A DNA stretch of 64,000 bases from Candidatus Levyibacteriota bacterium (GTDB lineage Bacteria; Patescibacteriota; Microgenomatia; Levybacterales; UBA12049), in NCBI GenBank assembly GCA_963722305.1, contig CAVRKE010000001.1, positions 501,549-565,548 on the forward strand, given 5' to 3'. Position numbers and translations under genes: made by a program. Below, in pieces: positions 7,349 to 51,622 of this stretch. The number at the start of each line of letters is the position of its first letter. Position 1 is the first letter of the stretch. Under the pieces are notes generated by a model. The model saw nothing but the letters and a program-made list of their open reading frames with translations. It was not told where the DNA came from and made no database searches.

Positions 7349-8191
7349 ATGGCAAAAAAATCTGTTACGGAGGTTTTAAAATATTTTCAGTTTTCCGATA
7401 AAAATAAAGTTCTAAAAAAACTGCAGACAATTATTGCCGGCGGAAAAAATAATTTGCATTTACTTTTTGATTTTGACCGGACCTTAACTGTTGGTAAAAA
7501 CAACACCGGTGAAGACTTTACTTCGTGGAATATCTTAACAAAACTTTTGCCTCCTAAGGCTTTTGCCAAACAGTACAAACTTTATCAAAAATATCGACCA
7601 ATAGAGGCATCGGGCAAATTAAGTGCCAAAGATGCAACAAGTTGGGCCAATCAGGTGTTGAAAATTATTGTTGAAAACCAGGTCAATTTGTTGGAAATGG
7701 AAAAAGACTTTTTGCAAAACACCAGCATTAGATCTCATGCTAAAAACATTTTTGATGCTTGTAATATTCTCGGAATTCCCATTGTAATTGTCTCGGCCGG
7801 AATAAAAAATGTTATTGATATTTGGTCAAAAATATTTCAGGTATCCCCTGCTTTAGTTTTAGCTGTCAAGCTAATCGCTGACACAAACGGAAAAATTATC
7901 GACTGGGACAAAAATATTATCCATGTAGGAAATAAAGGAGAACAAGGAAACGAGGAGTTGGATAAAATCAAAAATCAAAGACCGAACATTATTGCCGTTG
8001 GGGACGCCATTGAAGACGCGGATATGGTTAAGGACGATGAAAATGTCCTGCGGATAAGAATTAACGACCCAAGGATAGATGAGAAATTAAGTGAAGCAGA
8101 ACGTCTGAAGAAAACTTTTGCCAAGTTTGATTTAATGATTGACTCCGGCACTCTGGAGCCGGTTTTGAAGATTTTGGAATTATTGGAATAA
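7349..8191 (+). CDS. HAD-superfamily hydrolase, pyrimidine 5'-nucleotidase (UMPH-1/cN-III)-like
   Basis: HAD motif I FDFDRTLT, motif II VSAG, motif IV GDAIEDADM. The large cap between motifs I and II resembles the cN-III family. An extended -10 element TGcTATAAT at 7334-7342 lies 6 nt before the ATG. Confidence 0.6.
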   Translation: MAKKSVTEVLKYFQFSDKNKVLKKLQTIIAGGKNNLHLLFDFDRTLTVGKNNTGEDFTSWNILTKLLPPKAFAKQYKLYQKYRPIEASGKLSAKDATSWANQVLKIIVENQVNLLEMEKDFLQNTSIRSHAKNIFDACNILGIPIVIVSAGIKNVIDIWSKIFQVSPALVLAVKLIADTNGKIIDWDKNIIHVGNKGEQGNEELDKIKNQRPNIIAVGDAIEDADMVKDDENVLRIRINDPRIDEKLSEAERLKKTFAKFDLMIDSGTLEPVLKILELLE

Positions 8192-10384: not shown

Positions 10385-10392
10385 AAGGCAGA

Positions 10393-10421
10393 ATTATAGT
10401 CGCGAAATCCTGTAGTGTCAA
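10393..10421 (-). promoter_or_regulatory. Sigma70-type promoter (TTGACA-N17-TATAAT) for the carboxyltransferase gene
   Basis: On the minus strand, TTGACA at 10421-10416 and TATAAT at 10398-10393. The ATG at 10384 lies 8 nt downstream. Confidence 0.55.
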
Positions 10422-10427
10422 ATGAGC

Positions 10428-11531
10428 TTACTTGAGGCCGCCGATGACTTTGACGCGCTGCAAGAGCGAGTCGTCTTCCAATACTTTGCCGGTACCACGG
10501 ACAACCGAAGTTAAAGGGTCTTCACTGCGGACAACCGGAATGTGAGTTCTTTCCACAATCAAATGGTCAAGCCCGGAAAGAAGCGAACCTCCGCCGGTTA
10601 AAAGAATTCCGTGTTCCAGAATATCGCTGGTTAGTTCCGGCGGCGCATCTTCCAGAACAGAGGCCACCGCATCAATAATCTGACTTAAAACCGGCGACAA
10701 CGCTTCCCTGATTTCCACTTCCGTCACTCTTAGGCTCTTTGGTAGTCCGGTTTCAATATCCCTGCCCCTGATAATGGCCACCTTTTCTTCTCTTTTCTCT
10801 TTTTCCCCGTCTTTGCTGTTTGTAGTTTGGGATTTGTGATTTGGGATTTGTTGATATGCGCTGCCAATTTTTATTTTCATTTCCTCGGCGGTTTTTTCAC
10901 CAATCAACAATCCATGTCGAAGTCTGATGTAGTGAGAAATTGCCATGTCCATATCGTCTCCGGCAACTCTTAAAGATTTGGAAACCACAATTCCGCCCAG
11001 GGAAATTATCGCAATTTCGGTGGTTCCCCCCCCAACGTCAATCACCATTACACCGCTAGGTGAAAAAACCGAAATATTTTCGCCGATGGCCGCTGCCATT
11101 GGTTCTTCGATTAAAAAGGCTTCCCTTGCCCCTGAAGATAGTGTCGCTTCCCAAACGGCTCTCCTTTCGACTTCTGTCACCGATGAAGGAATGCCGATTA
11201 CTACTCTGGGCCTGGAAAAAGCCAAAGGGATCGACTTACCGACTTCGTAAACCTGCTGAATATAATAAGAAATCATCGCCATGGTGGCATCAAAATCGGA
11301 AATCACTCCGCCTTTTAAAGGCCTTATTGTCATAATTGCCGCCGGAGTTTTTCCAACCATTTTTTTGGCTTCCATTCCTACCGCAATCACTTTTTTGCTT
11401 TTTTTATGGATGGCCACCACCGAAGGTTCCCTGATCACAATCCCCTTCCCTTTTACAAAAACCAAAGTATTAGCAGTGCCCAAGTCGATACCAATGTCAT
11501 GGGAGAAAAGAGAGAATAGTTTATTGAACAT
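10428..11531 (-). CDS. mreB: Rod shape-determining protein MreB (actin-like ATPase)
   Basis: DIGIDLGTANTLVF, VIDVGGGTTEIAIISLGG, LTGGGSLLSGL. It carries a ~25-aa low-complexity insertion (QQIPNHKSQTTNSKDGEKEKREEK). Confidence 0.9.
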   Translation of the reverse strand: MFNKLFSLFSHDIGIDLGTANTLVFVKGKGIVIREPSVVAIHKKSKKVIAVGMEAKKMVGKTPAAIMTIRPLKGGVISDFDATMAMISYYIQQVYEVGKSIPLAFSRPRVVIGIPSSVTEVERRAVWEATLSSGAREAFLIEEPMAAAIGENISVFSPSGVMVIDVGGGTTEIAIISLGGIVVSKSLRVAGDDMDMAISHYIRLRHGLLIGEKTAEEMKIKIGSAYQQIPNHKSQTTNSKDGEKEKREEKVAIIRGRDIETGLPKSLRVTEVEIREALSPVLSQIIDAVASVLEDAPPELTSDILEHGILLTGGGSLLSGLDHLIVERTHIPVVRSEDPLTSVVRGTGKVLEDDSLLQRVKVIGGLK

Positions 11532-33874: not shown

Positions 33875-34063
33875 ATGGCAACCACCCCGGCAAATTTTTT
33901 ACGCGAAGTTCGGGATGAACTGAAAAAAGTTGTCTGGCCGACCCGGGACGAAATAATCAGGCTTACGGGCGTTGTCATATTGGTCAGTTTACTGGTTGGA
34001 GTTTTCCTGGGTGGAACCGACTTTATTTTGACTAAATTAGTTGCAATATTAGTAACCAGATAA
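33875..34063 (+). CDS. secE: Preprotein translocase subunit SecE
   Basis: 62 aa. The segment FLREVRDELKKVVWPTRDE is followed by a single TM helix. It lies directly upstream of nusG. Confidence 0.85.
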   Translation: MATTPANFLREVRDELKKVVWPTRDEIIRLTGVVILVSLLVGVFLGGTDFILTKLVAILVTR

Positions 34064-35315: not shown

Positions 35316-35738
35316 GTGGCGAAGAAAATCAAGACAATAATTAAGATAAATATACCTGCCGGGCAGGCCACGCCTGCGCCACCGGTGGGAACGGCTTTGG
35401 GACCACACGGATTACCGATTATGGAGTTCGTCAAGGCCTTTAACGACAGGACTGCCGAGCAAAAAGGCACCATTGTTCCGGCTGTAATTACCGTTTACGA
35501 AGACCGCACTTTTTCGTTCATTGTCAAAAAATCTCCGATTGCGGAAATGATTAAAAAAGCGATGAACCTGGAGAAAGGTTCCGGCAAACCGGGGACAGAA
35601 TCGGCAGGAACATTGACTAAAACTCAGGCCGAGCAAATTGCCAAAGACAAGCTGGAAGATTTGAATACCGACGACGTGACTCAAGCTGTCAAAATTGTGG
35701 AAGGAGTCGCCCGCTCAATGGGCATCAAAGTACAATAA
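35316..35738 (+). CDS. rplK: 50S ribosomal protein L11
   Basis: MAKKIKTIIKINIPAGQATPAPPVGTALGPHG... is the canonical L11 N-terminal domain. GTG start. Confidence 0.95.
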   Translation: MAKKIKTIIKINIPAGQATPAPPVGTALGPHGLPIMEFVKAFNDRTAEQKGTIVPAVITVYEDRTFSFIVKKSPIAEMIKKAMNLEKGSGKPGTESAGTLTKTQAEQIAKDKLEDLNTDDVTQAVKIVEGVARSMGIKVQ

Positions 35739-35739
35739 T

Positions 35740-36639
35740 ATGGGAAAAATTAGAGTCAGAACTCTTGGCGACGAAAGCCAGGAAGAACAACAAAAAAACG
35801 AGGTCAAGAAAAAACACGAGGCTAAATTGAACGCAGCGAAATCCTCGACGAGAGGAAAGACGACCAAGGCTCCCGGCATGAAAGGCGGCGAAAGAGTGGT
35901 TTCGGTTGGCCCGAGCGAAGAAGAATTAGCCGCTTTGGATAATAAAGGGGTGGCAGAAGAGGGAGGGCTCCCGACAGCGCGCAGTGAAGAGAGCACTGGC
36001 GGGAAGGAAACCTCTGACAGGACCCCGACAAAAAAGCCTAAAAAGGAACAAAAAAACTTCCATTCGCAAAAATACGAGAAACTGTTAGCCGAAGTTGACC
36101 GCAGCAAGACTTATCCTTTAAACGAAGCGCTGGCGCTTTTGCAGAAACTGCAGCGGAAATCTTTTGACGAAACCGTTGAATTGCATGTTAATACCTTAAC
36201 CAGTGGTATTTCCGGCCAAATTACTCTTCCCCACGGCACCGGTAAAACCACCCGCGTCGCCATTGCCGACGACAAAATAATTGCCGAAGTCGAAAAAGGA
36301 GTGATTAATTTTGACGTTTTGGTGGCAGAACCAAGTATGATGCCAAAACTGGCCAAGGTGGCTAAAGTACTAGGACCAAGAGGCTTAATGCCAAACCCCA
36401 AAAACGGCACGATTTCGCCAAAGCCGGAAGAAGTGGCCAAAAAATATGCCGGCGGACAAATGAACTTTAAAACCGAGACCAAAGCACCGATTATTCACTT
36501 AACTGTCGGCAAAATTTCCTTTGGTCCGGAAAAATTAACCGAGAACATTGAAGCATTAATTGCCGCCATCAAAAAAACTAATATCGTAAACGTTACCTTG
36601 AAATCTACAATGAGCCCGGGGCTGAAGATAAAGATCTAA
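35740..36639 (+). CDS. rplA: 50S ribosomal protein L1 with a ~110-aa Lys/Glu-rich N-terminal extension
   Basis: The canonical L1 core begins near KYEKLLAEVDRSKTYPLNEALALL and includes ..LPHGTGK.. and ..LGPRGLMPNPK... The start is set at the ATG at 35740, 1 nt after the rplK stop. Confidence 0.85.
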   Translation: MGKIRVRTLGDESQEEQQKNEVKKKHEAKLNAAKSSTRGKTTKAPGMKGGERVVSVGPSEEELAALDNKGVAEEGGLPTARSEESTGGKETSDRTPTKKPKKEQKNFHSQKYEKLLAEVDRSKTYPLNEALALLQKLQRKSFDETVELHVNTLTSGISGQITLPHGTGKTTRVAIADDKIIAEVEKGVINFDVLVAEPSMMPKLAKVAKVLGPRGLMPNPKNGTISPKPEEVAKKYAGGQMNFKTETKAPIIHLTVGKISFGPEKLTENIEALIAAIKKTNIVNVTLKSTMSPGLKIKI

Positions 36640-36684
36640 GCCTCAATTTGACAATTTTTTACCTCAGTAGTATTATCCGCAAGT

Positions 36685-36942
36685 ATGCCATGCCTACATG
36701 AATTGGGTTTAGTACGAAGAATTAAAAATACAGGCACACATATCGCACGATCGATTGACAGATTTGAACTGAAGGTTGAAGGGCTTAGTTCAAGGCAAAA
36801 AAGACAAATTTATTTTGTTATAGTAGCATTTATGTTAGCTACTGTAGGTTCCATTGGCGCAGTTGCAGGTAATGACTTAGGCGCTGCGATGCCTTTCTCC
36901 GGAGCTGCCGCATCGATATTTGGTGCAGCCATGAACTCCTAA
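36685..36942 (+). CDS. Small hypothetical membrane protein (85 aa)
   Basis: A TTGACA-N17-TATTAT promoter (36648-36676) lies 8 nt before the ATG. Gly/Ala-rich C-terminal TM segment. Confidence 0.45.
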   Translation: MPCLHELGLVRRIKNTGTHIARSIDRFELKVEGLSSRQKRQIYFVIVAFMLATVGSIGAVAGNDLGAAMPFSGAAASIFGAAMNS

Positions 36943-36989
36943 CTCGGCCTATTGACAACCAACCACCTCAGCATTAAAATCCGCTCAAT

Positions 36990-37844
36990 ATGATAAGAGA
37001 ATTTGGAACATTTCGACCTCTGTCTCCCAGCCTAATAGGTGATCCACAATCACCGGGACAAGCTAGTCCTACTAAAGATTCTGATGGCCGCTTAGCTCCG
37101 CAGGAGCGCCGTATTAAACTGCTTGCTGCTCTTTGCGAAAAAGGACTGTTTAAAGCGGTCGCTGCCTTGGAAAAAGAACAACCGACGAATGATCTTAAAT
37201 ATCGTTCCTGGGAATTAGTCAGGCACGGTAGAGCGGCAGAAGTGGTTGGAACAGTTTTAGGCCCGGACGGAAAACCAATACGTTACAACGGTTTTGAACC
37301 GTATTTTCTCGGTCTTCCGGCAGAGAAAATTGTCAAGCGGGAAATCGAATTAGGCCATCATCTTGCAGCTGAACTTAAGTTGGAACATCCAAAGGGCAGA
37401 ACAATAGAACTAAATCAACAGGAACGGGAAGTTATAAAAGCTTTACGCGGTGAGGAAATATCCCATTCCCACATTATTCAGGTATTAAAAGACCTTGATT
37501 GCGTTTTTCAAGTTGTTCATAATAGGGCAAAAGGCGGTTTAATTTGGGAAGGCATCCGGTTCCGGGACCACACGCATGACATTGTTGAATCAAGCCAACC
37601 TTACGAACCAGTCGTTAAAAATACGGTTGTTCATGTAGAAAACGCGGAAGACAGAAACGCTCTTATCTTACTGGGTGAAATCGGCATTATAGGCCATCCA
37701 GCACTTAGAGAAATCGTTGAGGGTATTCCTTTTAGATTTGAAGAAGAACCAAAACCTGTTATAGTCGTAGACGAGGCAACACATCGAAGGCTTAACGCCG
37801 CGGTGCATACTGGTGAAAAAGGACCGCCTGATGAACTTGCCTAG
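36990..37844 (+). CDS. Hypothetical protein (284 aa)
   Basis: A TTGACA-N17-TAAAAT promoter (36952-36980) lies 9 nt before the ATG. No recognised motif. Confidence 0.55.
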   Translation: MIREFGTFRPLSPSLIGDPQSPGQASPTKDSDGRLAPQERRIKLLAALCEKGLFKAVAALEKEQPTNDLKYRSWELVRHGRAAEVVGTVLGPDGKPIRYNGFEPYFLGLPAEKIVKREIELGHHLAAELKLEHPKGRTIELNQQEREVIKALRGEEISHSHIIQVLKDLDCVFQVVHNRAKGGLIWEGIRFRDHTHDIVESSQPYEPVVKNTVVHVENAEDRNALILLGEIGIIGHPALREIVEGIPFRFEEEPKPVIVVDEATHRRLNAAVHTGEKGPPDELA

Positions 37845-37908
37845 AATCCCTTTCCGTTCGGTTTGACAATAAACCGCCAACACAGTAAAATCCCCACATT
37901 ACTAAATT

Positions 37909-40089
37909 ATGAGCGTAGAGCAGCACAGACGCACCAACAGAGAGACTCTTGCCGAGGCTTTTTCGCTTGAAAAACAAGCCGCGGGCGCAATAGCGGGGAG
38001 ATTACATTTAATACCGCTACATGAAAGACAAGAAACGGAAACTGTTAAGCTGACTTTTGCATCATTCGGAGTAGTAGGCGCATGCGGCCAAACCGGCCGG
38101 CTTTATATCGAGAGGACTGCTCTTGGCTCCCCCACTCTTCCCATTACTGCAGTTGATTTGGTAGAGCCTACGAAAAGAGGAATAGAATTCCCCGACAGCG
38201 TTAAATTTTCTAGCGATTTAGCTTCAATTTTGCAAAGAAAAGACAGACCCGAAGCTTTTATTCTTGCGACCACTAATCCCATTGATAAACTACTTGAAAC
38301 TTTTAGAGATAACCTTGACGACAGACATATCACTTTGATTCTTCCTCAAAATGGAGTTGACGTTGTACCAAAAGCTCAAGAAATATTAAAAGGTAAAAAC
38401 GTAACTTTAATAAGAGCAAGCTTATTTACACCGGTTGATACTGAGCCGGATGGAAAAATTAAATATCCGGAGGACAAATTAAGAATAGGGCTTTCTTTAG
38501 TCAGGCCGGAAGGAGATATTGCCGATCCCGAAAAAGAGAAAGAACTTCAAAAGGCGGTAGAAACGTTTAGACGAGGAGGTTTTGACGCTAAAATTTTTGA
38601 GAACTATGTCAGCATGGAATGGACAAAGTTAGTTTTGAATGCGGTTGGCATAACAGGAGGTATTGTCGGCATTTCACCAAAAGAAGTTTACAATGACCAC
38701 GCCCTGTATCTACTGGAAACGCAGGCGCTGCACGATAGATTAAGAATTTTGGAAGCAGCCGGAATTAAATTAGAACATATTCCCTGGGGCGGAGCCGCAC
38801 TTTTACCTACATATGATTCTCTCCCTGGACTAATAAGAAAAAGTCATTTGGCGCAATTCCTTTATGGCCAGAAAGTGATTGCCGGCAGAGGGAATAAGCC
38901 TTCATCGGTTGGAATCAATATTCAAAAAGGAACCCCAACTGAGGGAATTACTTATCTTGAACCATTTGTCAAACTTGGAGAAACGGTTGGACTGCGATCA
39001 ATTGTCGATGAAGCGATGATTGAAATCATTCAAGGAAATTATACATTTATAACTCGTCGCAAAAACGACGTTGATACTCAAGAAAGAAAAATTGATTTGG
39101 CAGATTTTAGCCTCGAAGAGAGAAGAACGCTTTTGTTTGAAACTATTAGAAAACTAAGCCAAAAACCGCCAACCCGCCTGGACCGACTTGAAGGCAGAAT
39201 ATTTGCCGAAGGAGCGAAAAGATTTCTTCGTTACAGGATTATTGATCCACGCAACTACAGAGAGCGAACAGCTGAAGTTTTGCATCCAAAAAATGCTGAA
39301 GAAAAACCAGGTGAGGTGGTTGAAGGATTAAATCATGGAGACATGTCTGACTCTATTCACGGAATGGAATTAAATTTCACGATAGATGATATTGCCCATG
39401 CCTATGGCATGGATACTTTTTGGCATTACGATCGAACAAGAGGAAAAAAATATACCAGACTTTATGCTTGGGTAGAAGCTAAAGTGACAGCGGCAACCGG
39501 TATGCGAACCTACCACATCTTAAGGGAAAAAGATTTTGAATATTACCGAACCCACCGCGGAGCTATAGAAGGAAAAGCTCCTGAAGAATATAGCGGCCCA
39601 TCCTACAGAAAAATCAGGGAAAGACTTAAAAAAGAAGGCGGAATTTTTCTAATTGCTCCAGAGGCAACCAGAACTTTAACCGGCGAGCTAAATAGAGCTC
39701 AACCTGCAGGACTATTTTTAGAAACAAAGGACTTCAAGGAACGGGGCGTTTATCTTCCGGTAGGACTTGTCCCGACTTCTATCAAAGTCCCTTATCCCGA
39801 GAGAAGAAGTCTCGCCCAAAAAGCTAAACGCTTTTTGGCTAAAACAGAAATTAGAGTAGGAAAGCCTGTAACCTACGCTGAAATTATCCAAGATATGACA
39901 ATTGTCAATGAAGGCATAAAAGCTGTAAATAACCAAAGAGGAGAAAATGAGCAACTCGAATTAATGACCATAAGCGACATGATGATGCTTTATATCGCTA
40001 GGGTTCTTCCTCCACAGTATTGGGGATACTATAAAGAATACGTTCAATTCATGCCAAAAAATAATGGCAACGCTCCCCTAGCCACCTAA
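37909..40089 (+). CDS. Fusion protein: ketopantoate-reductase (ApbA/PanE)-like N-terminal half plus PlsC-type acyltransferase-like C-terminal half
   Basis: The N-terminal half has a Rossmann motif VVGACGQTG and MEWTKLVLNAVG (the W.KL..N motif of PanE). The C-terminal half has NHGDMSD (H-x4-D) and IAPEATRT (an FPEGTR-like motif). A TTGACA-N17-TAAAAT promoter lies at 37863-37891. Confidence 0.5.
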   Translation: MSVEQHRRTNRETLAEAFSLEKQAAGAIAGRLHLIPLHERQETETVKLTFASFGVVGACGQTGRLYIERTALGSPTLPITAVDLVEPTKRGIEFPDSVKFSSDLASILQRKDRPEAFILATTNPIDKLLETFRDNLDDRHITLILPQNGVDVVPKAQEILKGKNVTLIRASLFTPVDTEPDGKIKYPEDKLRIGLSLVRPEGDIADPEKEKELQKAVETFRRGGFDAKIFENYVSMEWTKLVLNAVGITGGIVGISPKEVYNDHALYLLETQALHDRLRILEAAGIKLEHIPWGGAALLPTYDSLPGLIRKSHLAQFLYGQKVIAGRGNKPSSVGINIQKGTPTEGITYLEPFVKLGETVGLRSIVDEAMIEIIQGNYTFITRRKNDVDTQERKIDLADFSLEERRTLLFETIRKLSQKPPTRLDRLEGRIFAEGAKRFLRYRIIDPRNYRERTAEVLHPKNAEEKPGEVVEGLNHGDMSDSIHGMELNFTIDDIAHAYGMDTFWHYDRTRGKKYTRLYAWVEAKVTAATGMRTYHILREKDFEYYRTHRGAIEGKAPEEYSGPSYRKIRERLKKEGGIFLIAPEATRTLTGELNRAQPAGLFLETKDFKERGVYLPVGLVPTSIKVPYPERRSLAQKAKRFLAKTEIRVGKPVTYAEIIQDMTIVNEGIKAVNNQRGENEQLELMTISDMMMLYIARVLPPQYWGYYKEYVQFMPKNNGNAPLAT

Positions 40090-40128
40090 CCCTTGACGGA
40101 AAAATAAATATGAATTAATATCCACATC

Positions 40129-40254
40129 ATGTCAATTGAAAGAAAACATTTAAACAGACTTGAAGCTTGGAAAAAAGGCGAACCATATCGTAGAGCTGTT
40201 GATCTAACGCGTAGCGATGGCTACAATCCATCCATTCCCCATCCCCACAGCTAA
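40129..40254 (+). CDS. Small hypothetical protein (41 aa)
   Basis: MSIERKHLNRLEAWKKGEPYRRAVDLTRSDGYNPSIPHPHS. A TTGACG-N17-TAATAT promoter (40093-40121) lies 7 nt before the ATG. Confidence 0.3.
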   Translation: MSIERKHLNRLEAWKKGEPYRRAVDLTRSDGYNPSIPHPHS

Positions 40255-40289
40255 AAGGAGACCGTTTTATCGAATCTTCAGAATGGGCC

Positions 40290-40442
40290 ATGAATAGAGG
40301 GCTTATTGCGGCTGCATTTTCTTTCTTAAGCTATCTTTCTGGGAATGAGCGGGCAGGTACAGCGGCAGCGGCGACAGCGGCTGTTTTTATCTTAAGCTCC
40401 ATTATTCTTTATAATCTATCCAATTATTCAAACCCAAACTAA
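40290..40442 (+). CDS. Small hypothetical membrane protein (50 aa)
   Basis: MNRGLIAAAFSFLSYLSGNERAGTAAAATAAVFILSSIILYNLSNYSNPN has two hydrophobic segments, in the same style as the C-terminus of 36685..36942. Confidence 0.25.
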   Translation: MNRGLIAAAFSFLSYLSGNERAGTAAAATAAVFILSSIILYNLSNYSNPN

Positions 40443-40510
40443 GGCACCTATACCTTGAAGACAAGTAAGACATGCTCATGTTAAATTTCTGTCTCGAAAT
40501 AGATTAAGTC

Positions 40511-42185
40511 TTAAGGTTGACTTCTTTGAGGTAAAGTTGGCAATGAATCTTTCGTTGCTTCCCATTCTTTAAGAATCTGAATAACTCTTTGGTTCTCACC
40601 TGCTGTGGGATCTAATATAGCCTCTTCCAAGTTAAGCATAGCCACGTTATACAGTTTGCCAAACTCTCTAACAAAATTTGCATCATGTCCCTTGCTCAGA
40701 GACCGTTCATGTGAGATTTCATGAAGATAAGTTTCAAGTGCAGTTGAAAACGCTTGATGGATTCGTTCTTGTGCTTCCCACAAGAATTCAGGCGTATAAT
40801 GCCCATGGAAAATACTTTTTTCCTTAGCAGCGCTAAACATCCAGATTTGAGGAGTTTCCTTAATTCCCATTATTTCTCCGGCAAATTCCCTTAGCAATCC
40901 CGTTCTTGTGTTTTCAGCTTCTGAAGGCTCAATTCTAAAATGACTCATTAGATTTTTAACAGCTTCTGCCGTTGTAGTCATTCCCAAATCTGCCATTGCA
41001 GGATGACAAAGAACATAACCTGCTCCTTCTAGAGCTAGGTCATAGTCACCAAACGCCTCGTTGCTTATGGCGACATATTGAGAAGGAAATTCTAGCGGTT
41101 GTCCGTGATATTTTTCGACATAAGCATCCACCATCGCTCCCAATAATTGCCCTGGTATTGAAATATCGTAAATTGAATTCATGAAGTCTTCCCCCATAGC
41201 CAATGCGTTTGCCATGCCCTTTTTTGTCCGATCGGGATCGTCTACGCTTTCTATGTCTACCGATTTAGGACCTCCTGGAACCAATGGTTTTTTTCTTCCA
41301 TACCAAAAATCGGGATTATTGACTATAGTGCTTCGTATTTCTTCCTCTGTCATTCCAGCTACAATTTTCGGAATAACGTCTTCTTCTATTTGTCCTTTTG
41401 TTACAGCTCCTCGGTCTCGATCCGCACTTAAAAACTTTTCCCTTAGTCCATAGTGTTATGTCTTCAATTGCATTGTAACCTCCGCCACTCTTATCACCCA
41501 GAAATAGAAGATCTTGACGAAAATGACGTCTTTGTCCAGCTTCGTAAATATTACCTTTTTTGCCTTTGTGGAGCTTAAAGCCTCCAACTTCGGGATTGCT
41601 ATATGTGGGATTTCTAAAGTCAGGATTTTCGCTTGAATAGAAAAGATTTCTTGTTTCAAGAAATGTTTTTGCCATTCCTGGTGTTGGAAACTTAACACTA
41701 AACCTACTTCCGGCTTGATAATGAACTCTTTCTACTCTTGCATAGAGGCCTTTCGTGGGTTCATCGCCAATTCTATAATCAGGAACATCATTTAGATAGT
41801 AGGTTAAACGCCAGTCTCCCGATTCGTGCACTACTTGATTAGCTCCCATTCTTGTCAACATGATTAGCGCGGCGACTTTTGCTCCTTCCCGATATCCTCC
41901 CGCAGATGAATCATCCATAGATTTTGTTCCTCCGCCCATATGCATTAAATGTGAATAGTCGTATTCACCTGAACCGCCTATTAAAACTTGGACTCCGTGT
42001 TCGGTTTTGGTTTGAGAATGGATAACTCCGTCTAGTGTGCCACCTTGCCCATCAAAGAAGTTTTGCCATACATCTCGAGCGGTTTTTTCATCATCCCAAG
42101 GAACGTTGTATGTTGTAAGTAAGCCAAGATATCTATTTTCAATTACCGAAGACCTTATTTCGCCTGATGGTATTGGATCTGGCAT
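40511..42185 (-). pseudogene. Frameshifted ~558-codon gene: GHKL-ATPase-like N-terminus, HExxH-containing C-terminus
   Basis: Track ORFs 41316..42185 and 40511..41353 overlap. The downstream frame is open from 41455 and reads ..LREKFLSADRDRGAVTKGQIEEDVIPKIVAGMTEEE.., so a +1 shift near GGGAAAAG (41442-41435) joins them. Motifs: ARDVWQNFFDG (N-box-like), GGYREGAK, LHEISHERS (HExxH). Confidence 0.55.
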
Positions 42186-42263
42186 AGCAATCTAATTGTT
42201 GTATATTACGAATGTAATTGCAAGCATATCTCGAGCATAATCCATGCTTGAGTTTTATTCTTT

Positions 42264-43115
42264 CTATGTTCCCGTCCAAATCCCAGCAATCATTCCCTTG
42301 CTTTGTAATAGATCAATTGTGGTTACTGCAAAATTTAGATGGTGTTCAAAAAGCGTTTCTTCAACTTTTTGTTTAATAAATTTTAAGAGAAACTTTTCCA
42401 TTTGCTTATCTGGAAGTACAAAAAGAATAATTGTATTAGCTGCTGTTGCTCCTTTGTAGTCTGAATATTCAATATATTGTTGTACTCTGTATCTTAAATA
42501 GTACCTTGGAGTCTTTTCTCCAATTAATTCAAGGTAATATAAATAGTCTTCTTTATCCTTAACTTGTTTTTTAAGCTTATTAATAGCTGTTGTTAATTTA
42601 ATCTTTTTCTTTATATAGTCGTCAATGATTGCAGGAGATGTTTTTAAAGATATTGCACAATCAGGATATGGTTCTATTATTACATCGTCTTCGTAGAGCT
42701 CCTGTTTTGTTTTAAAGAAGTTTAACGCATTAAGATCTTCAGTTTTACGTAGAGTGTCTAGGTAAAGATTGGCAATTACTGAACATCTACTTCTAAACTC
42801 TTCACTTCTTTCTTTTTCTCTGTAGAATTTATGAGCTGTATCATAGTCGATGTTATATCTAACAAACCTGACACCGGTTGGCGCTAAGAAATACACTGCC
42901 GGTTGAAGATTGAAAGGTGTTTTTCTGTCATAGATACGGTATAGATAGTCATTTTCTACTAAGTTTTTAAGCCATACGTTAATTCTTTTATAGTCCTTAT
43001 GTTTCATTATGGTTTGTATTTGAATTCTGTTTAGGAATCTGAATTTATGAATTAGTTTTAGTATTTCTTTTTGTTTTTCTGAGATGTAGGGTAGTTCGTA
43101 AGACCATTTTTTCAT
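42264..43115 (-). CDS. Replication-relaxation family-like protein (wHTH N-terminus); plasmid/integrative-element type
   Basis: 283 aa and AT-rich. The N-terminus ISEKQKEILKLIHKFRFLNRIQIQTIM resembles the wHTH of replication-relaxation proteins. The call is from memory of the family only. Confidence 0.4.
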   Translation of the reverse strand: MKKWSYELPYISEKQKEILKLIHKFRFLNRIQIQTIMKHKDYKRINVWLKNLVENDYLYRIYDRKTPFNLQPAVYFLAPTGVRFVRYNIDYDTAHKFYREKERSEEFRSRCSVIANLYLDTLRKTEDLNALNFFKTKQELYEDDVIIEPYPDCAISLKTSPAIIDDYIKKKIKLTTAINKLKKQVKDKEDYLYYLELIGEKTPRYYLRYRVQQYIEYSDYKGATAANTIILFVLPDKQMEKFLLKFIKQKVEETLFEHHLNFAVTTIDLLQSKGMIAGIWTGT

Positions 43116-43494
43116 ATGTTTTTTGTTTTTAAGAGGCAGTTATTGTTTTTAGTTTAGTTTTGAGGGCAGAGGTTTTATTGTTTAGTATTATATCATTTTA
43201 GCGGATTTTAGAGTTATATCTTTATTTATATTTATATAAATAGAAAAGAGGGAATAACCCAGGATGTGATTTTAGACATTATTCGGCTAATTTAATGGAA
43301 AAATAGACACCACCCCCGCCCTAGCCGAATAGGGCAAAAAGAGTACTTACGTAGGTACTATTTGAAAGCTATGATATACTTTAATTTAATGAAAAAGAAA
43401 CTGTTGGAGAAAGATAAAAAATTATTAGAGTTTGTAAAGATGGGTGGACGTGAGGGAGCAAAAAAAGATTTCCTATCTTTACTTAAAAAAGCAG

Positions 43495-44385
43495 CTAAAC
43501 CTTTAAAGTCTTAACCTCTGCAACTTGTCTTAGTAGCATTTCAAACATTTTTCCCTGATTGTTTCTCTGATTATATCGCCAAGCATATTCGTTGACATAA
43601 CTTTGGAGATATTTCTTTGAAACAACTCTATAAACTCCCGTAATTCCTCTTTTTAACTGAGACCATACCCCCTCAATAGTATTATTGTGAATAAATCCTC
43701 TTACATATTCTCCGCTTGAATGATTAACTTTGTCATGGTCGTAGTATCCAAAGTCATACAGGTTTTTATACGAAGCAAGTTCATCTGTCATGACATGGGC
43801 TTTAGGACTGACATTTTGTTTTATCTGGTTTATCAGCGTCCATTTTCCAGTATTGGGAATATGTTTTAAGTATGCCTTGCCACCCCTTTCAACTGCTCCC
43901 CAAACTACTTCCTTAGGTATTTCGTTGAAGTTTGGTTTTGTAGCTCTATTCTTACCCTTACCACCGATATATGTTTCGTCTATTTCAACAATCCCGCTTA
44001 AAAGTCCACCTTCCGTTTCTGCCATTAACATTCTGATTTGTTTAAACATTCTCCACGCCGTCTTATATGTTACCCCTAACATTCTCTCCAATTGTTTGGC
44101 CGATGTTCCGGATCTAGTTGTAACCATTAAATACATTGCAAAAAACCAAAGATCAAGTGGAGTACTGGTTTTTTCAAAGATAGTACCGGCCAGTGGATAG
44201 ATCTGAAACCCACAATACTTACAAGCATATGAGGTTCTATTGGTTACGGGATAGAAGACTGAAAGACTTTTACATTTAGAACATTCCATCTCATCTGGGA
44301 ATCTTAAGCGTTTAATAGCTTCCAGGCACTGTAAATGTGTACCGTATTTTCGCTTAAATTGTCTGAGGCTAAACTTCTTATTCAT
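43495..44385 (-). CDS. IS1595-family (ISXO2-like) transposase, a second, different element
   Basis: Zn-ribbon CSKCKS...CKYCG. DDE-type residues in VEIDETYIGG, VMTDELASY and NNTIEGVWSQLKR. The element ends could not be defined with confidence. Confidence 0.8.
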   Translation of the reverse strand: MNKKFSLRQFKRKYGTHLQCLEAIKRLRFPDEMECSKCKSLSVFYPVTNRTSYACKYCGFQIYPLAGTIFEKTSTPLDLWFFAMYLMVTTRSGTSAKQLERMLGVTYKTAWRMFKQIRMLMAETEGGLLSGIVEIDETYIGGKGKNRATKPNFNEIPKEVVWGAVERGGKAYLKHIPNTGKWTLINQIKQNVSPKAHVMTDELASYKNLYDFGYYDHDKVNHSSGEYVRGFIHNNTIEGVWSQLKRGITGVYRVVSKKYLQSYVNEYAWRYNQRNNQGKMFEMLLRQVAEVKTLKV

Positions 44386-44443
44386 AGCCTCATTATACAG
44401 TATTATTTACTTGTTGTCAAGGGATAAGTACCCAAACTAACTC

Positions 44444-44472
44444 TTGACGCTATAAAACTCTTCTGCTAAACT
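44444..44472 (+). promoter_or_regulatory. Candidate rplJ-rplL promoter (TTGACG-N17-TAAACT)
   Basis: TTGACG at 44444-44449 and TAAACT at 44467-44472, about 140 nt upstream of rplJ. Confidence 0.4.
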
Positions 44473-44586: not shown

Positions 44587-44609
44587 AACTCGCTTAGGCG
44601 AGTTTTTTT
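44587..44609 (+). promoter_or_regulatory. Terminator-like hairpin plus U7 tract abutting the rplJ ATG (possible L10-leader attenuator)
   Basis: Stem AACTCGC, loop TTAG, stem GCGAGTT, followed by TTTTT, then the ATG at 44610. An upstream CTCGCC (44549-44554) could pair alternatively with GGCGAG (44597-44602). Confidence 0.45.
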
Positions 44610-45452
44610 ATGGATACAAATACCAAAATCAGCACCAACCGGCCCACCAACACTAAAGTTACGGCGGGCAGGCAGAAGAAAATTGAAGTCGTTGCCAAGC
44701 TTAATGAAAAGTTAGCCAAATCCAAGGCAATTATCTTCACCAACTACACAGGGGTCACCCACAAGCAGCTGGAAGCCCTGAAAAGAGCGATTAAGCCAAT
44801 GCAGGCGGAATATGTCGTCGCCAAAAATTCTTTGATTCTCAGGGCTTTGGACGAAAACAAAATCAAGCTTGAGGGCGAAAATCCGCTGCAAGGCCCAACC
44901 GGAACGCTTTTGATTTATGCCGACTATATTGAACCGCTCAAGCAGCTGGCCAAAACCATGAAGGAACTGGGGCTTTTAAACATTAAGCTTGGTATTATGG
45001 AAAATCAGTTTTTAAGCGGCGAGCAAATCTTAAAAATTTCCGCTCTTCCGCCGAGAGAAACCTTACTCGCTCAAGTTGCCGCCGGCTTAAAGTCCCCTAT
45101 TTCCGGTTTACATCGGGCTTTGAACTGGAATTTACAGAAATTAGTGATGACACTTAAGGCTGTTGCCGATAAAAAACCCGCAGTCGCTGCAGTTCCGGTT
45201 CAAACTGTTCTGACCGCGAATCCGACAGAACCCGAATCAGTCATGGCGGAAACCGTAGCCGAAAAAACTGCTGAAACAGCACCCGCGGAACCTAATCAGC
45301 CGGCGGCCGAACCAAATATTACCGAGCCTGAAACAATCGGGGCAGAAACCGAAGCAGAAGTAGTCGCCGAACAACCAGAGAAGGATAATCCTACAATTGA
45401 AGCAGAGAAAAGTGTCGCGTCAAACGCGATTGGCGAAGGGGGTGAGAATTGA
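44610..45452 (+). CDS. rplJ: 50S ribosomal protein L10 with a ~110-aa Ala/Glu/Pro-rich C-terminal extension
   Basis: L10 core (..[32 protein letters not shown]..). It lies upstream of rplL and overlaps it by 4 nt. Confidence 0.85.
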
Positions 45453-45844: not shown

Positions 45845-45865
45845 ATTAAGTTGAGCGTAGCGAGA

Positions 45866-45885
45866 TCCTTAGCGCAAGCTAAGGA
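45866..45885 (+). repeat. Hairpin repeat (family copy 4, fully Watson-Crick)
   Basis: Stem TCCTTAGC, loop GCAA, stem GCTAAGGA. The G.A/A.G positions of copies 1-3 are replaced here by T-A/A-T pairs. Confidence 0.6.
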
Positions 45886-45932
45886 CTAGGGTTGAGTTGA
45901 AGTAAAATTTCTTTGAAGTTTTCGCAATTTTT

Positions 45933-45963
45933 CCCTTACATTCTCGAATGTGAGGGAATTTTT
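45933..45963. terminator. Bidirectional rho-independent terminator between rplL and the convergent gene
   Basis: CCCTTACATTCTCGAATGTGAGGG forms an ~10-bp stem with one G.U pair, flanked by AATTTTT and AATTTTT. Confidence 0.6.
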
Positions 45964-45968
45964 GTTGG

Positions 45969-46442
45969 CTATAAATTAAAAGTTAGCTGCTTTGAAGTCC
46001 GGGTTACAAAAACATCGTTTTGATCCCATTGTGTATCAGAATCAATATAACGGGTTGTCAGCCATACTCCGCCACGGTCGCGAATGAGTTCAAAAACTGC
46101 CGGTAAATGAGGTGGATTAGGTAAGTTACGAGGGTTTGGTAATGGATACGGATCATCGATTGGCTCCATAACTATTACATACCGCTTTCCGATTTCTAAC
46201 TGTTGCATATTCCCTTTTGCGGCTTCTATTGCCAAAAAAATGCCTGCTTCGGGAGAAAGTCTATTTTCTGGTTTTCCCCAAATTTGCTCCGCTTTTGAAG
46301 CGTCACTAATCATAAAACTTAACCCTGTAGGCATTTCAAAAGGCGGCATTAGTTCAATCATTGTTCTTGCCGCCCCGGCAACATTGAGCCCTCGAGTAGA
46401 ATCTAATAAGTTCCCTACAGCTGTATTTCTTTCCGGCAACAT
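45969..46442 (-). CDS. Hypothetical protein (157 aa)
   Basis: A TTGACA-N17-TATATT promoter (46479-46451) lies 8 nt before the ATG. No recognised motif. Confidence 0.5.
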   Translation of the reverse strand: MLPERNTAVGNLLDSTRGLNVAGAARTMIELMPPFEMPTGLSFMISDASKAEQIWGKPENRLSPEAGIFLAIEAAKGNMQQLEIGKRYVIVMEPIDDPYPLPNPRNLPNPPHLPAVFELIRDRGGVWLTTRYIDSDTQWDQNDVFVTRTSKQLTFNL

Positions 46443-46556
46443 GTTCTTGGAATATACAGTTGGATATCCTTTTTGTCAACAACGATTTAGACTGTTCACA
46501 TTTTACCCTAGGCGCTACGTGGGGGTGATTCTTGTTGGCTAAAGAGGGTTTTGCAG

Positions 46557-47507
46557 TTAATTTGAGAATATCTGTTTAAGCTGTTTATCTATTTCCGGAA
46601 TTGCTGCTAGTCCTTCGATTAATGTTTCAGTAGGCTCTTCGTACTGAATTGCTGCAACTGGTTGCCAGTGACTATCTCCATCATGCTGTAAGCCAAAATA
46701 AAAGAAGCCAACTTGATTTTCTAATGGCATCATAATTGATGCTGTCCAAAATTCCGGGTCTTCTACAGAACCTCTATCTACTTGCAGTTCTTGCCCTGTT
46801 TTCAGATTAATGTCCGCACTCTCAACGTAAGCATGCGGATTAAGAATATTTATTCTACCCCGTAATCTACTAATTGCGGATAGCAAAGGAGCATGTCCTT
46901 CTGCCCTTGTCTTATTTTCTTCTGCCTCCCTGTCTGTAACAGCTTCGAAAGCGTCAATTCCATATAACTTTAAAAAGCTTACTTCAAAACTTTCAACACC
47001 AAAGTCAGTTACTCTTGTTTCATCACCGTTTCTCTCCATATAAAAAGTGTGAACGTCGCCGCGGGTGGGAGGAACGTAAGGCGGCAGTGGAGCAAGTAAT
47101 CTATTAAAATCTCTGCCGATTGCATATGCTGCCCCTTGAGCTCTCAGCCCGATTGAAACTTCGGCGTTAATCGGCAAGTGCCTATGTGCAAAAGGCTCCA
47201 ATTGACCTGACTGTTCATTGATTTGAAAACCAAAAGTAGCATCAATAATCTGCTCTCCTTCGCTAAAAGTCAACGCCATTGACCAAGAATCGGGAGCTAT
47301 TTTGGTACCACCTTGGTATTTTAACGTTGCCCCATCTCTTAAACTGAACTCCCCGCTTGCTACATTATTTGTGTCAGCAAATATTCTGCTTCTTAAAGCA
47401 ACAATTTGCCCGGAAAACTCTGCCTCTCTACCTTTTGCTTCTGAGTCTTGAACCGGTACTTGTCTTACTCCCGTGTCTGGCGACATATTCCCGAAAATAT
47501 ACACCAT
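46557..47507 (-). CDS. Hypothetical protein with two homologous tandem domains (start may be the ATG at 47486)
   Basis: Two ~90-aa segments share the pattern (A/S)..(S/R)(R/L)(I/R)...L..G..L......W. A TTGACA-N17-TATATT promoter (47524-47496) lies 9 nt before the internal ATG at 47486, which favours the shorter form. Confidence 0.5.
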   Translation of the reverse strand: MVYIFGNMSPDTGVRQVPVQDSEAKGREAEFSGQIVALRSRIFADTNNVASGEFSLRDGATLKYQGGTKIAPDSWSMALTFSEGEQIIDATFGFQINEQSGQLEPFAHRHLPINAEVSIGLRAQGAAYAIGRDFNRLLAPLPPYVPPTRGDVHTFYMERNGDETRVTDFGVESFEVSFLKLYGIDAFEAVTDREAEENKTRAEGHAPLLSAISRLRGRINILNPHAYVESADINLKTGQELQVDRGSVEDPEFWTASIMMPLENQVGFFYFGLQHDGDSHWQPVAAIQYEEPTETLIEGLAAIPEIDKQLKQIFSN

Positions 47508-47796
47508 TATGGTTTACCTGTCAAATTTGCCTCTTGATACATGCTGCGCTTTCCTTCGATTTCACTCAGGACTATAGTGCGCCCAGTCCTAAAGGATTTC
47601 GTTTCACTCAATATCGCGAACTATCTATAGACTATAGATATTTTGGGTCTTGATGCATGTTGCTTCGCTCAATACTTTCGCTCGGCCCAGTATCGCGTGG
47701 TAATTCTAAAATTGCCACTTGACAATTATGTTACACTTTGTTACTTTATCGTTGATTAATTATCATATTGATGACTATATGTATAGTCACAAGGTT

Positions 47797-48006
47797 ATGA
47801 ATAATCAAACCCTATCAATCAATAACCTACCCGATCTCCTGACAGTTAGGGAAGTGGCCCAAATCCTGAGAGTCTCCCCTCTCACCATCAAACGCTGGGG
47901 CAAAAGAGGAAAGCTCCCGGCCATAAGGATTAATTCCCGAGGAGATCGAAGGTACAAAAAGGAAGCCGTCCTCTGGCTTCTCGGTATTCAGGCAAAAGAA
48001 GAGTAA
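47797..48006 (+). CDS. Excisionase/MerR-type HTH DNA-binding protein (69 aa)
   Basis: LLTVREVAQILRVSPLTIKRWGKRGKLPAIRI. The start is set at the ATG at 47797, preceded by AAGG. The longer TTG-initiated track ORF is unlikely. Confidence 0.65.
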   Translation: MNNQTLSINNLPDLLTVREVAQILRVSPLTIKRWGKRGKLPAIRINSRGDRRYKKEAVLWLLGIQAKEE

Positions 48007-48131
48007 AAGTTGCTCGCTAACGCTTGCGCCAATTTCTAATTTCTAATTCTTGATTTCTAAAGAAAACTCAATGCCTAATTACTAATTAGCTCTGAAGTAT
48101 AATTCTGAAGACAGACATCACCCTCTATTAT

Positions 48132-48641
48132 TTACTTCCCTGTGGGAACAACCGGAGCATTGAATGTCGGAGCAGCAGTCGGAACGGATGTAGGAGCCGG
48201 CGCACTGGCGCCAAGATTCACCGGCGCCACTTCAATAATTTTATTAATACTTTCCCGGTAGAGAATGGCCTTTTTCGCTTGGGTATAAATTAAAACCTTA
48301 TCACCATTTTGCGCATTGGCAAAAAACGGCTGGTCGCTCAATTTGGTAATATCCGAAACCGTGGCAATAGTCGGCTGCTCATTGGTCGGCAAAAGCATCA
48401 ATTTTCCAACTTCGGCCACCACCTGTTTTGCTTCGGCGTTTGTCGAAGCAGCCGGATTTTGCAATAAATTTTCCGCTTGCTTATATTGGTGATAAAAATA
48501 GTAAGACGGCAAAATCGCAATTACCAACAAAATTACAAGCACAATAATCCATAGCGATTTATTGCCTCTGAGGTTACTCAGTATTTTTTCTTGATATTCG
48601 CGAAGCTTCTGGACAGAAATTTTCACTACAGTTATTATCAT
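48132..48641 (-). CDS. Membrane-anchored hypothetical protein
   Basis: A single N-terminal TM helix (LWIIVLVILLVIAILPSYYFY) is followed by a ~110-aa soluble domain. Confidence 0.55.
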   Translation of the reverse strand: MIITVVKISVQKLREYQEKILSNLRGNKSLWIIVLVILLVIAILPSYYFYHQYKQAENLLQNPAASTNAEAKQVVAEVGKLMLLPTNEQPTIATVSDITKLSDQPFFANAQNGDKVLIYTQAKKAILYRESINKIIEVAPVNLGASAPAPTSVPTAAPTFNAPVVPTGK

Positions 48642-48720
48642 AAAGAAAATTCCGGAAGTTTGTCAATCCCCGTCTTAAAAACATTGAACCAAATTTGAAT
48701 TTGTTGTAAAGTAAAGATGG

Positions 48721-51531: not shown

Positions 51532-51622
51532 AAATAACCTAAACACTCGCCGCTTCAACCAGTGGCTATTTTACTCCCTTGCTTCCGGCTTAACTCAATT
51601 TTTAAACAACCGCCTTAGGCCT

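Follow-up and report, generated by a model that had tools for sequence, protein, structure and literature searches.

The space between rplA and rplJ in a Candidatus Levybacteria genome combines lineage-typical genes with an IS1595-family transporter insertion sequence

We analyzed a 64,000-nt stretch of DNA (hereafter the window) from a metagenome-assembled genome (MAG) whose rplA similarity places it in Candidatus Levybacteria (Levyibacteriota, Candidate Phyla Radiation (CPR)/Patescibacteria). The open reading frame (ORF) map and Pfam put the end of rplA at 36639 and the start of rplJ at 44610, as an earlier note on this DNA had stated, leaving an interval of 7,970 bp between the two ribosomal protein genes. 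That note had read the interval as one ~8-kb accessory island that splits a normally contiguous cluster, with cargo on the left and the remains of a plasmid or integrative element on the right. Our results make it very probable that the interval instead consists of two layers of different age and origin, a native left half (36640-40442) and a right half made up of a recently inserted IS1595-family transporter insertion sequence (tIS). What stands of the former reading is that the gap holds non-ribosomal DNA and that its right half is probably mobile and is compositionally foreign; what does not stand is the single island.

The right half is a complete tIS of 3,990 bp (40443-44432, minus strand), delimited by inverted repeats (IRs) and a flanking target-site duplication (TSD) and set off by a foreign GC content. 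Its transposase-distal IR, GGCACCTATACCTTGAAGACAAGTAA (40443-40468, plus strand), is complementary at 21 of 26 positions (81%) to the transposase-proximal IR, GGTACTTATCCCTTGACAACAAGTAA (44407-44432, minus strand), and this pair, I2 of the repeat search, brackets precisely the minus-strand gene block. A pattern derived from both arms matches nowhere else in the window (0 expected). Abutting both arms on the outside is a perfect 8-bp TSD, CAAACTAA, read from the sequence, with its left copy at 40435-40442, where it includes the TAA stop codon of a 50-aa ORF, and its right copy at 44433-44440; by chance, all 8 bases would agree at a fixed position with a probability of about 2e-5. The earlier statement that no flanking direct repeats could be found was therefore wrong for the right half, where they lie just outside the 26-nt IRs. 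The element ends are GGTACTTAT and GGCACCTAT, and related loci show GGTAATTAT; all of these fit ggnnatTAT, the end consensus of the ISNwi1 group. In ISfinder, 8 bp is the duplication size of the IS1595 family.

Assignment to this family, already proposed in the earlier note, is borne out by a 296-aa DDE transposase with an N-terminal zinc ribbon (43495-44385, minus strand), which matches PF12762 at 129.1 bits (cutoff 27), PF12760 at 32.3 bits (25.4) and NCBIfam NF033547 at 199.3 bits (75). Upstream of the transposase gene (tnp) lies a sigma-70 promoter that fits the consensus at 12/12 positions, TTGACA-17-TATAAT (44392-44420, minus strand), with its -35 box inside the proximal IR, and tnp would be expressed from this site. 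IS1595 elements with extra genes are termed "transporter IS" in the literature, which reports such elements for the IS1595 and IS66 families alone (10.1101/2021.05.26.445724; PMC3129680, citing Siguier 2009). The passengers that define a tIS are present here as a gene for a Replic_Relax-like protein and a gene for a 557-aa GHKL/zincin fusion, both located between tnp and the distal IR. The GC content of the element is 36.7%, within the bottom ~1% of 4-kb windows (mean of the whole window 42.7%), and its tetranucleotide distance falls in the top 5%. The boundaries and the mechanism of the right half are thus resolved: it does not represent plasmid or integrative-element remains and is instead an intact IS1595-family tIS with IRs, an 8-bp TSD and a consensus transposase promoter. 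In the proposed mechanism, the transposase would recognize both 26-nt IRs and insert the whole unit with its passengers through an 8-bp staggered cut; this cut would fall ahead of the rplJ promoter, past the stop codon of the final ORF before it, and would give rise to the two copies of CAAACTAA.

The age of the insertion can be judged from an independent assembly of sample ERR11594402, represented by Logan contigs L029 and L030. Contig L029 corresponds to positions 35954-40442 at 100% identity, crossing the rplA junction and stopping at the boundary of the insertion sequence (IS), and L030 corresponds to 40413-44459 at 99.95%, holding the whole element on one unbranched path, with unique flank of 30 nt on one side and 27 nt on the other. 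The two contigs overlap by exactly 30 nt, that is, k-1 for k=31. We modelled the de Bruijn bubble (k=31) formed by the filled allele together with an exactly empty allele in which one CAAACTAA is kept, with the sequence ...TTCAAACCCAAACTAACTCTTGACGCTATAAAAC...; the modelled filled-specific unitig spans 40413-44459, exactly the coordinates of L030, its predicted right end being set by three nucleotides (ACC) that the IR tip and the left flank happen to share. The unique flank at both ends of L030 shows the element to be single-copy in the graph, so that the branching must come from an alternative path that skips it. The contig ends thus point to a recent insertion for which the source population is probably still polymorphic. 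A closely related genome free of the IS, L124, aligns up to the TSD. A look-up of the rplJ protein for a contig with the right flank or the empty site gave no exact record. L030 also differs from the window by a single A/C difference at 42936, inside the Replic_Relax gene, and by an indel at 41428; the two assemblies therefore represent variants of the element that differ slightly.

The evidence for a native left half comes from 11 Levybacteria comparators (L001-L009, L015 and L124). Nine of them hold in their rplA-rplJ gap a homolog of either the 284-aa protein or the acyltransferase domain of the 726-aa protein encoded in the left half of the window; the exceptions are L004, whose gap contains an unrelated 385-aa ORF, and L006, whose contig stops just after rplA. 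Gap lengths are ~5.1 kb in L001, 2.1 kb in L003, 1.6 kb in L004, 3.1 kb in both L005 and L015, 4.1 kb in L007 and 1.7 kb in L008. The claim of a normally contiguous cluster split by an island consequently fails for Levybacteria, where gaps of 1.6-5.1 kb occur, and adjacency of rplA and rplJ is confined to more distant taxa, such as L010 (~220 bp) and loci of Planctomycetes. In L124, the closest relative, which was reached via the best homolog of the 284-aa protein, the order is secE, nusG, rplK, rplA, a 78-aa membrane ORF, a 284-aa homolog (60% identical), a 270-aa acyltransferase, rplJ and rplL. Its gap of 2.66 kb is free of any IS, and this same gene order argues that a split between rplA and rplJ is typical of the lineage. 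Nucleotide homology between the window and L124 extends up to 37977, within the first ~25 codons of the 726-aa gene, and resumes at 44439, in the last bases of the right TSD.

A PlsC-type acyltransferase family of ~250 aa, homologous to residues ~420-716 of the 726-aa protein, occupies the gap in eight of the nine positive comparators, and L003 has the 284-aa homolog alone. The genes that normally fill the space between rplKA and rplJL in Levybacteria thus encode a small membrane protein, a lineage-specific protein of ~280 aa and an acyltransferase of the PlsC type, and each gene has its own promoter. Further evidence that the two ribosomal units are uncoupled in the lineage comes from L009 (12369-13465), where rplJ-rplL is inverted relative to rplK-rplA and lies 1.8 kb downstream. 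The left half of the window is also indistinguishable from the host in composition, with a GC content of 42.3% and a tetranucleotide distance at the 32nd percentile. Conserved presence in relatives, which the earlier note itself had named as evidence that would overturn its view, together with native composition, speaks against calling these genes cargo, and the GC comparison that it had proposed separates a foreign right half from a host-like left half. Hallmarks of a genomic island are lacking for the 8 kb as a whole: it contains no integrase, there is no tRNA gene within 11 kb, and the repeat search found no repeats bounding 36640-44443.

All ORFs of the earlier note were recovered at their positions in the ORF map, and its separate consensus promoters for the three plus-strand genes of the left half were confirmed, each matching the consensus at 11/12 positions. 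The site TTGACA-17-TATTAT (36648-36676) precedes an 85-aa small membrane protein (36685-36942), which has a counterpart at the same position in relatives. A second site, TTGACA-17-TAAAAT (36952-36980), precedes the 284-aa protein (36990-37844), and together with the third (37863-37891), which precedes the gene of the 726-aa protein (37909-40089), it forms direct repeat D2 of the repeat search. Homologs of the 284-aa protein lie downstream of rplA, with one small ORF between, in L001, L002 and L003 (28-32% identical) and in L124 and L125 (60%), and define a narrow family specific to Levybacteria, with just three non-identical homologs in 5.8 billion proteins. Neither the 85-aa nor the 284-aa protein has a match in Pfam, NCBIfam or PHROGs, and the 284-aa protein has none in PADLOC either. 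Two tiny plus-strand ORFs, of 41 aa (40129-40254) and 50 aa (40290-40442), are doubtful genes that were not called in L029; we considered them as homologs of the small membrane ORFs of relatives and rejected this, as the similarity was not significant.

The 726-aa protein is probably a reductase-acyltransferase fusion, as the earlier note had supposed, with a weak match for its reductase part (ApbA_C 21.4 bits, TIGR00745 28.7 bits) and an acyltransferase relation that runs through homologs matching PF01553. Its first ~30 residues resemble the acyltransferase of the lineage, residues ~35-420 form a PanE/ApbA-like reductase, and residues ~420-716 form a probable, divergent PlsC-type acyltransferase domain. 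The N-terminal 28 aa are 65% identical to the 270-aa protein of L124. The 245-272-aa gap proteins of L005, L007, L008, L009 and L015 share 22-24% identity with the C-terminal domain, and homology to those gap proteins that pass the PF01553 cutoff reaches E-values of 1e-11 to 1e-13. Among the gap proteins scanned against PF01553, those of L005 (39 bits) and L007 (30 bits) pass the cutoff and that of L009 (18.5 bits) stays below it; the 726-aa protein itself has no PF01553 match and contains NHGDMSD, which has the HX4D pattern, and IAPEATR, to be compared with the (F/I)xPEGTR block. The two-domain architecture recurs in dozens of proteins of 600-690 aa elsewhere. Only the reductase-fused body of this gene and the two doubtful tiny ORFs are strain-specific. 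The gene would have kept the ancestral acyltransferase promoter and the first ~30 codons, the remainder presumably being replaced by the fusion version.

Several points weigh against the two-layer interpretation. The segment 37978-40442 has no nucleotide homolog in the closest relative, L124, and part of the layer we call native may be an older acquisition. The window holds one copy of the tIS, we saw no empty-site sequence from the same population, the polymorphism being deduced from contig ends, and PADLOC returned no defence-family match for the cargo. In addition, the ISNwi1-like subgroup (ggnnatTAT ends, as in ISfinder) to which we take the element to belong is an assumption on our part.

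That the whole of 36640-44443 was acquired as one island, inserted into an ancestral rplKA-rplJL unit with cargo on its left and a decayed plasmid or integrative element on its right, would agree with the near adjacency of rplA and rplJ in distant taxa, with the mobile-element genes of the interval and with the absence of the 726-aa body and the tiny ORFs from the closest relative. Synteny already largely refutes this proposal: homologs of left-half genes occupy the same gap in all but two of the comparators, the composition there is native, no integrase, tRNA target or repeats bound the interval, and the right half is self-contained, with IRs and a TSD of its own; we regard a single island as highly improbable. 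It is likewise very unlikely that the right half combines a remnant of a small plasmid or integrative element that integrated here, with Replic_Relax as its Rep or relaxase and the AT-rich spacer as its origin, and an ordinary ~1.1-kb IS1595 element that landed beside it later, the distal IR and the 8-bp repeat being coincidental. The literature does connect Replic_Relax proteins with the replication and relaxation of plasmids and with the MOB_C class (PMC3424549, PMC5357655), some CPR homologs reside in islands with serine recombinases and toxin-antitoxin genes and no transposase, and the spacer next to the gene is AT-rich with a palindrome. Yet coincidence would have to explain a perfect 8-bp duplication exactly outside both IR arms, no copy of the proximal-type IR lies between tnp and the Replic_Relax gene, and the series tnp, spacer and Replic_Relax recurs without interruption, at 80-85% identity, in other elements, of which one has a like distal IR and a perfect TSD. 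Moreover, L030 holds the whole unit as one unbranched path, and 72,556 plasmids gave no match.

An assembly artefact, that is, a misjoin or chimera at ~36.6 or 44.4 kb, had been named in the earlier note as something that would overturn its own reading. Assemblies of CPR MAGs can be chimeric, and the independent assembly does break at the IS boundary; this break is exactly where an insertion polymorphism is expected to produce it, L029 crosses the rplA junction, L030 crosses both IS junctions, and both flanks are syntenic with L124, so that a misjoin is effectively ruled out and an artefact of this kind is extremely improbable. The tIS is an ordinary kind of element with an unusual cargo. Its residual novelty lies in the CPR host, in a recurring block that contains the Replic_Relax gene, and in the uncharacterised GHKL/Wss1-like cargo family.

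The Replic_Relax-like protein (42264-43115, minus strand, 283 aa) consists of an N-terminal MarR-like winged helix and a C-terminal alpha/beta domain. The replication-relaxation-like call of the earlier note is upheld by a PF13814 match of 28.8 bits (gathering threshold 25.3) that covers the N-terminal part of the profile alone (positions 1-104 of 191), and most homologs have a precomputed PF13814 match. The winged helix expected of Replic_Relax is present, and fold searches recovered this winged helix-turn-helix (wHTH) domain alone. In the C-terminal domain the order of secondary-structure elements is alpha-beta-beta-beta-alpha-beta, as expected for PD-(D/E)XK; the 23 closest homologs all keep P151-D152 and E196. 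There is no canonical (D/E)xK lysine, residue 198 being hydrophobic, and D152 is lost in distant homologs. Neither the interval nor the contexts of Replic_Relax homologs contain type IV secretion system (T4SS), coupling-protein or plasmid genes. With 31.0% GC, the gene is markedly AT-rich, as is the spacer of 30.3% GC between it and tnp (43116-43494, minus strand); both had been pointed out before. The spacer comprises a hairpin just after tnp, a conserved AT palindrome and an extended -10 element, TGATATAAT, upstream of the Replic_Relax gene, and these three blocks are conserved in an alignment with L126 and L128. The repeats that the earlier note had described there are present and minor, amounting to (TTATAT)x4 and palindrome I3 of the repeat search. 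An iteron-type origin was considered for the spacer and rejected, as it has just these repeats and its conserved blocks resemble a terminator and a promoter/operator. A small antisense ORF of 50 aa, putatively coding, spans the 3' end of tnp and the spacer (43362-43514, plus strand); it is called as a 41-aa gene in L030 and L126-L129, at a conserved position.

The closest homologs of the Replic_Relax-like protein (88-89% identical) are encoded directly downstream of IS1595 transposases, in L126 and L127 (transposase 94% identical) and in L128 and L129 (75%). These four loci are 80-85% identical to the element of the window over its first 2,164-2,179 nt and not at all beyond, a block that comprises the IR, tnp, the spacer and the Replic_Relax gene up to its stop codon. 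The block is followed by a PP2C-like gene in L126 and by a 620-aa ORF, bAvd and a reverse transcriptase in L128 and L129. L044 and L050 also have a Replic_Relax homolog after tnp, in both cases a more distant one. The tIS of L128 (5703-11624) and of L129 (290-6207) measures 5.9 kb, with a transposase 75% and a Replic_Relax protein 88% identical to those of the window and a perfect TSD, CTAATCTA; its distal end is of the same type as GGCACCTATACCTTGAAGACAAGTAA, with 4 mismatches, and the 620-aa ORF, bAvd and the reverse transcriptase are components of a diversity-generating retroelement. We accordingly regard the Replic_Relax gene as an accessory or passenger gene that recurs together with a conserved regulatory spacer of its own and is followed by a third, swappable cargo position.

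A rather unlikely alternative is that this protein is a working part of transposition or transfer, either a TnsA-like second-strand nuclease or a MOB_C-type relaxase. In five distinct elements whose transposases are 57-94% identical to that of the window, its gene does follow tnp directly and on the same strand, the spacer is conserved in the four close loci, the family has been placed in the PD-(D/E)XK fold and the MOB_C class (PMC3424549, PMC5357655), and the residues P151-D152 and E196 are kept in the tIS-linked clade. Against this, elements with equally close transposases do without the gene (L037, 77%; L038 and L040, 71%), and most of these keep TSDs, perfect ones in L038 and L040, whereas some Replic_Relax homologs occur without any transposase. 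The missing canonical lysine, the variable D152, the recovery of the wHTH domain alone in fold searches and the lack of conjugation genes in the window point the same way. The view of the gene as an accessory passenger is therefore the one that we retain. A bolder proposal, which we hold to be unlikely, is that the element represents a previously undescribed IS1595-type lineage in CPR, built as a three-part platform of a DDE transposase, a co-inherited winged-helix/PD-(D/E)XK (Replic_Relax) protein with a conserved control region, and a cargo position that exchanges conflict modules, and that the 557-aa family is a new single-gene defence system. If this were true, Replic_Relax would serve to cleave the second strand, to recognize the ends, to replicate an excised form or to mobilise the element; the cargo so far would be a GHKL-ATPase/Wss1-like protease in the window, a diversity-generating retroelement in L128 and L129, and a PP2C-like gene in L126; and the defence system would consist of an ATPase that controls a protease effector.

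The transposase has numerous relatives in JGI metagenomes, with at least 587 confirmed among 600 candidate stretches scanned. We examined 80 of these metagenome loci, with transposases 45-77% identical to that of the window, and found a 26-mer resembling GGTACTTATCCCTTGACAACAAGTAA (at most 6 mismatches) in 72 of them, nearly always 47-120 bp upstream of the tnp start. Twenty related elements, delimited by IR similarity alone, measure 1.66-4.23 kb, compared with ~1.1 kb for a bare IS, and 13 of these 20 are flanked by a perfect 8-bp TSD, with a 7/8 match in 3 more. Their passengers include type IIG-like restriction-modification fusions (HSDR_N, N6_Mtase, Methylase_S), SocA/Panacea antitoxin, DUF433, DUF3800 and Bro-N, which indicates that variable, often conflict-type cargo is the norm in this clade. 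In L071, two related tIS stand in tandem, 8 bp apart (5921-9083 and 9092-11154), and each is flanked left and right by the octamer GCCATCCT; this pattern suggests that one of them inserted at the target which the other had duplicated.

The distal passenger of the window element (40511-42185, minus strand) is a fusion of a MORC/MutL/Hsp90-like GHKL ATPase and a Wss1/SprT-like HExxH zincin, 557 aa long in its intact form. In the window it is split into overlapping ORFs of 280 aa and 289 aa by one extra T at 41428, and the intact 557-aa ORF of L030 confirms the frameshift proposed in the earlier note. The family counts 77 homologs, none of which is annotated or has a Pfam domain; the few that carry a taxonomic label come from Patescibacteria and DPANN archaea. 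A confident AlphaFold model based on 46 sequences reached a pLDDT of 87.5 and a pTM of 0.84, and the invariant or near-invariant residues fit both domains (N42, D45, G96, E100 and G101; H488, E489 and H492), as the N-box Asn and Gly-rich ATP-lid motifs of a Bergerat fold and the conserved HExxH of a Wss1/SprT zincin fold. At the six loci of three homologs whose contexts we examined, the genes stand alone in heterogeneous surroundings with no fixed neighbour, and two of the three homologs have neighbours related to mobile elements or conflict (Tn3, resolvase, integrase, HEPN-AbiU2, GIY-YIG). An HMM search found no other copy in the 80 transposase-related loci, and tblastn with the cargo proteins had no match in annotated plasmids (the same 72,556) or phages. 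The architecture of the 557-aa gene makes a single-gene factor in conflict or defence its most likely role. Overall, HMM searches assigned families to the transposase and the Replic_Relax-like protein and, weakly, to the PanE/ApbA-like reductase; the 85-aa, 284-aa and 557-aa proteins received none, nor did PADLOC supply one, its only match among the seven gap proteins being a spurious WYL match on the transposase; the gap thus holds no known defence system.

On the rplJ side, the element ends close to a promoter, TTGACG-17-TAAACT with a TG motif (44444-44472, plus strand), that begins 3 bp beyond the TSD. This promoter and the leader after it are conserved in L124, where the promoter comes directly after the acyltransferase stop codon. 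The segment 44462-44617 (plus strand) is a probable, divergent L10 leader: it matches RF00557 over the full model length and in the correct position, at 34.6 bits against a gathering threshold of 44 (E 0.0088). Within this sub-threshold match, a hairpin with a 7-bp stem and a T-run, AACTCGCTTAGGCGAGTTTTTTTT (44587-44609), ends just before the rplJ ATG and may act as an attenuator; L124 has an analogous hairpin and T-run. The rplJL regulatory unit is thus intact and the genes of the tIS are transcribed away from it, so that rplJL expression is presumably preserved.

The flanking ribosomal genes are laid out as follows. According to the ORF map and Pfam, secE (33875-34063), nusG and rplK lie upstream of rplA (35695-36639, plus strand; Ribosomal_L1, 120 bits), and rplL lies downstream of rplJ (44610-45452, plus strand; Ribosomal_L10, 69.8 bits). 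The rplA product is 57-79% identical over its full length in L001-L006 and L124, and distant relatives align from about residue 118. Beyond the Pfam domains, rplA has a Lys/Glu-rich N-terminal extension of ~120 aa (35695-36100) and rplJ an Ala/Glu/Pro-rich C-terminal extension of ~100 aa (45150-45452); both are common to the closest relatives (L001-L003 and L124) and absent or diverged in more distant Levybacteria. Three comparators carry a minus-strand pair between the acyltransferase gene and rplJ (L001:8802-10907, L005:1749-3865 and L015:11419-13553), encoding a ~500-aa calcineurin-like metallophosphoesterase and a 172-aa protein without a family match. The window and L124 lack this pair, which marks the gap as a variable hotspot. 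To the right of rplL, the window also contains a 1.27-kb segment (46445-47712) with a 316-aa minus-strand ORF (46557-47507) that has no Pfam match; L124 has 49 bp in its place, making the segment a second strain-specific indel near the ribosomal cluster.

Taken together, these results resolve an apparent island in a ribosomal cluster into a lineage trait and one defined transposon, and thereby avoid calling the genes of the left half acquired cargo. Mobile elements are thought to be scarce in CPR genomes. Our analysis indicates that passenger-carrying IS1595 elements move conflict-type genes in these ultra-small genomes, and that a tIS can land 3 bp from the promoter of an essential ribosomal protein gene without destroying it. 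Two uncharacterised families stand out, namely the GHKL/Wss1-like fusion and the Levybacteria-specific 284-aa protein near rplA.

Compared with the L11 and L10 operons of E. coli, the Levybacteria locus keeps the order secE-nusG-rplK-rplA ... rplJ-rplL and has a separate rplJ promoter with an L10 leader; it differs by 1.6-5 kb of non-ribosomal genes between rplA and rplJ, a lineage trait; these genes encode a PlsC-type acyltransferase in most relatives, joined by the 284-aa family in those closest to the window. Unlike the canonical rplKAJL-rpoBC arrangement, both the window and L124 lack rpoBC within 6 kb after rplL. The region after rplL (window 45845-51600; L124:6987-11300) is arranged alike in the two, with unannotated ORFs, a MerR-type HTH gene and a 936-aa protein that has a weak purple-acid-phosphatase N-domain match.

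The element itself resembles published IS1595 tIS (Siguier, Gagnevin and Chandler 2009; TnCentral definition) in its zinc-ribbon DDE transposase, its short imperfect IRs that start with GG, its 8-bp TSD, the location of passengers between the transposase and the distal IR, and its size of 3.99 kb. It differs from them in its CPR host and its uncharacterised GHKL/zincin cargo, and in that a Replic_Relax-type gene and a conserved spacer are repeatedly kept beside tnp in its lineage, the position for variable cargo coming after them; our literature search found no paper linking IS1595 elements to CPR. The Replic_Relax-like protein shares with Replic_Relax/MOB_C proteins such as pAD1 TraX an N-terminal winged helix followed by an alpha/beta domain with a PD-(D/E)XK-like order, a Pfam match above the gathering threshold and an association with mobile DNA. 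Unlike MOB_C relaxases, it matches the N-terminal 104/191 positions alone and has no canonical catalytic lysine, no oriT, coupling protein or T4SS lies nearby, and it resides within a transposon, not a plasmid. For the 557-aa protein, the closest functional analogy we found is VcSduA (Shedu type I-D; PMC12137116), which, like prokaryotic MORC/paraMORC proteins, combines an N-terminal GHKL ATPase, a second transducer/clamp-like domain and a C-terminal effector; as with GHKL-effector defence proteins, the family stands alone in contexts rich in mobile elements. In contrast to VcSduA, its effector is a minimal Wss1/SprT-like zincin protease instead of a PD-(D/E)xK nuclease, it belongs to no PADLOC or Pfam family, and its labelled homologs come from CPR bacteria and DPANN archaea; a role in defence is hypothetical.

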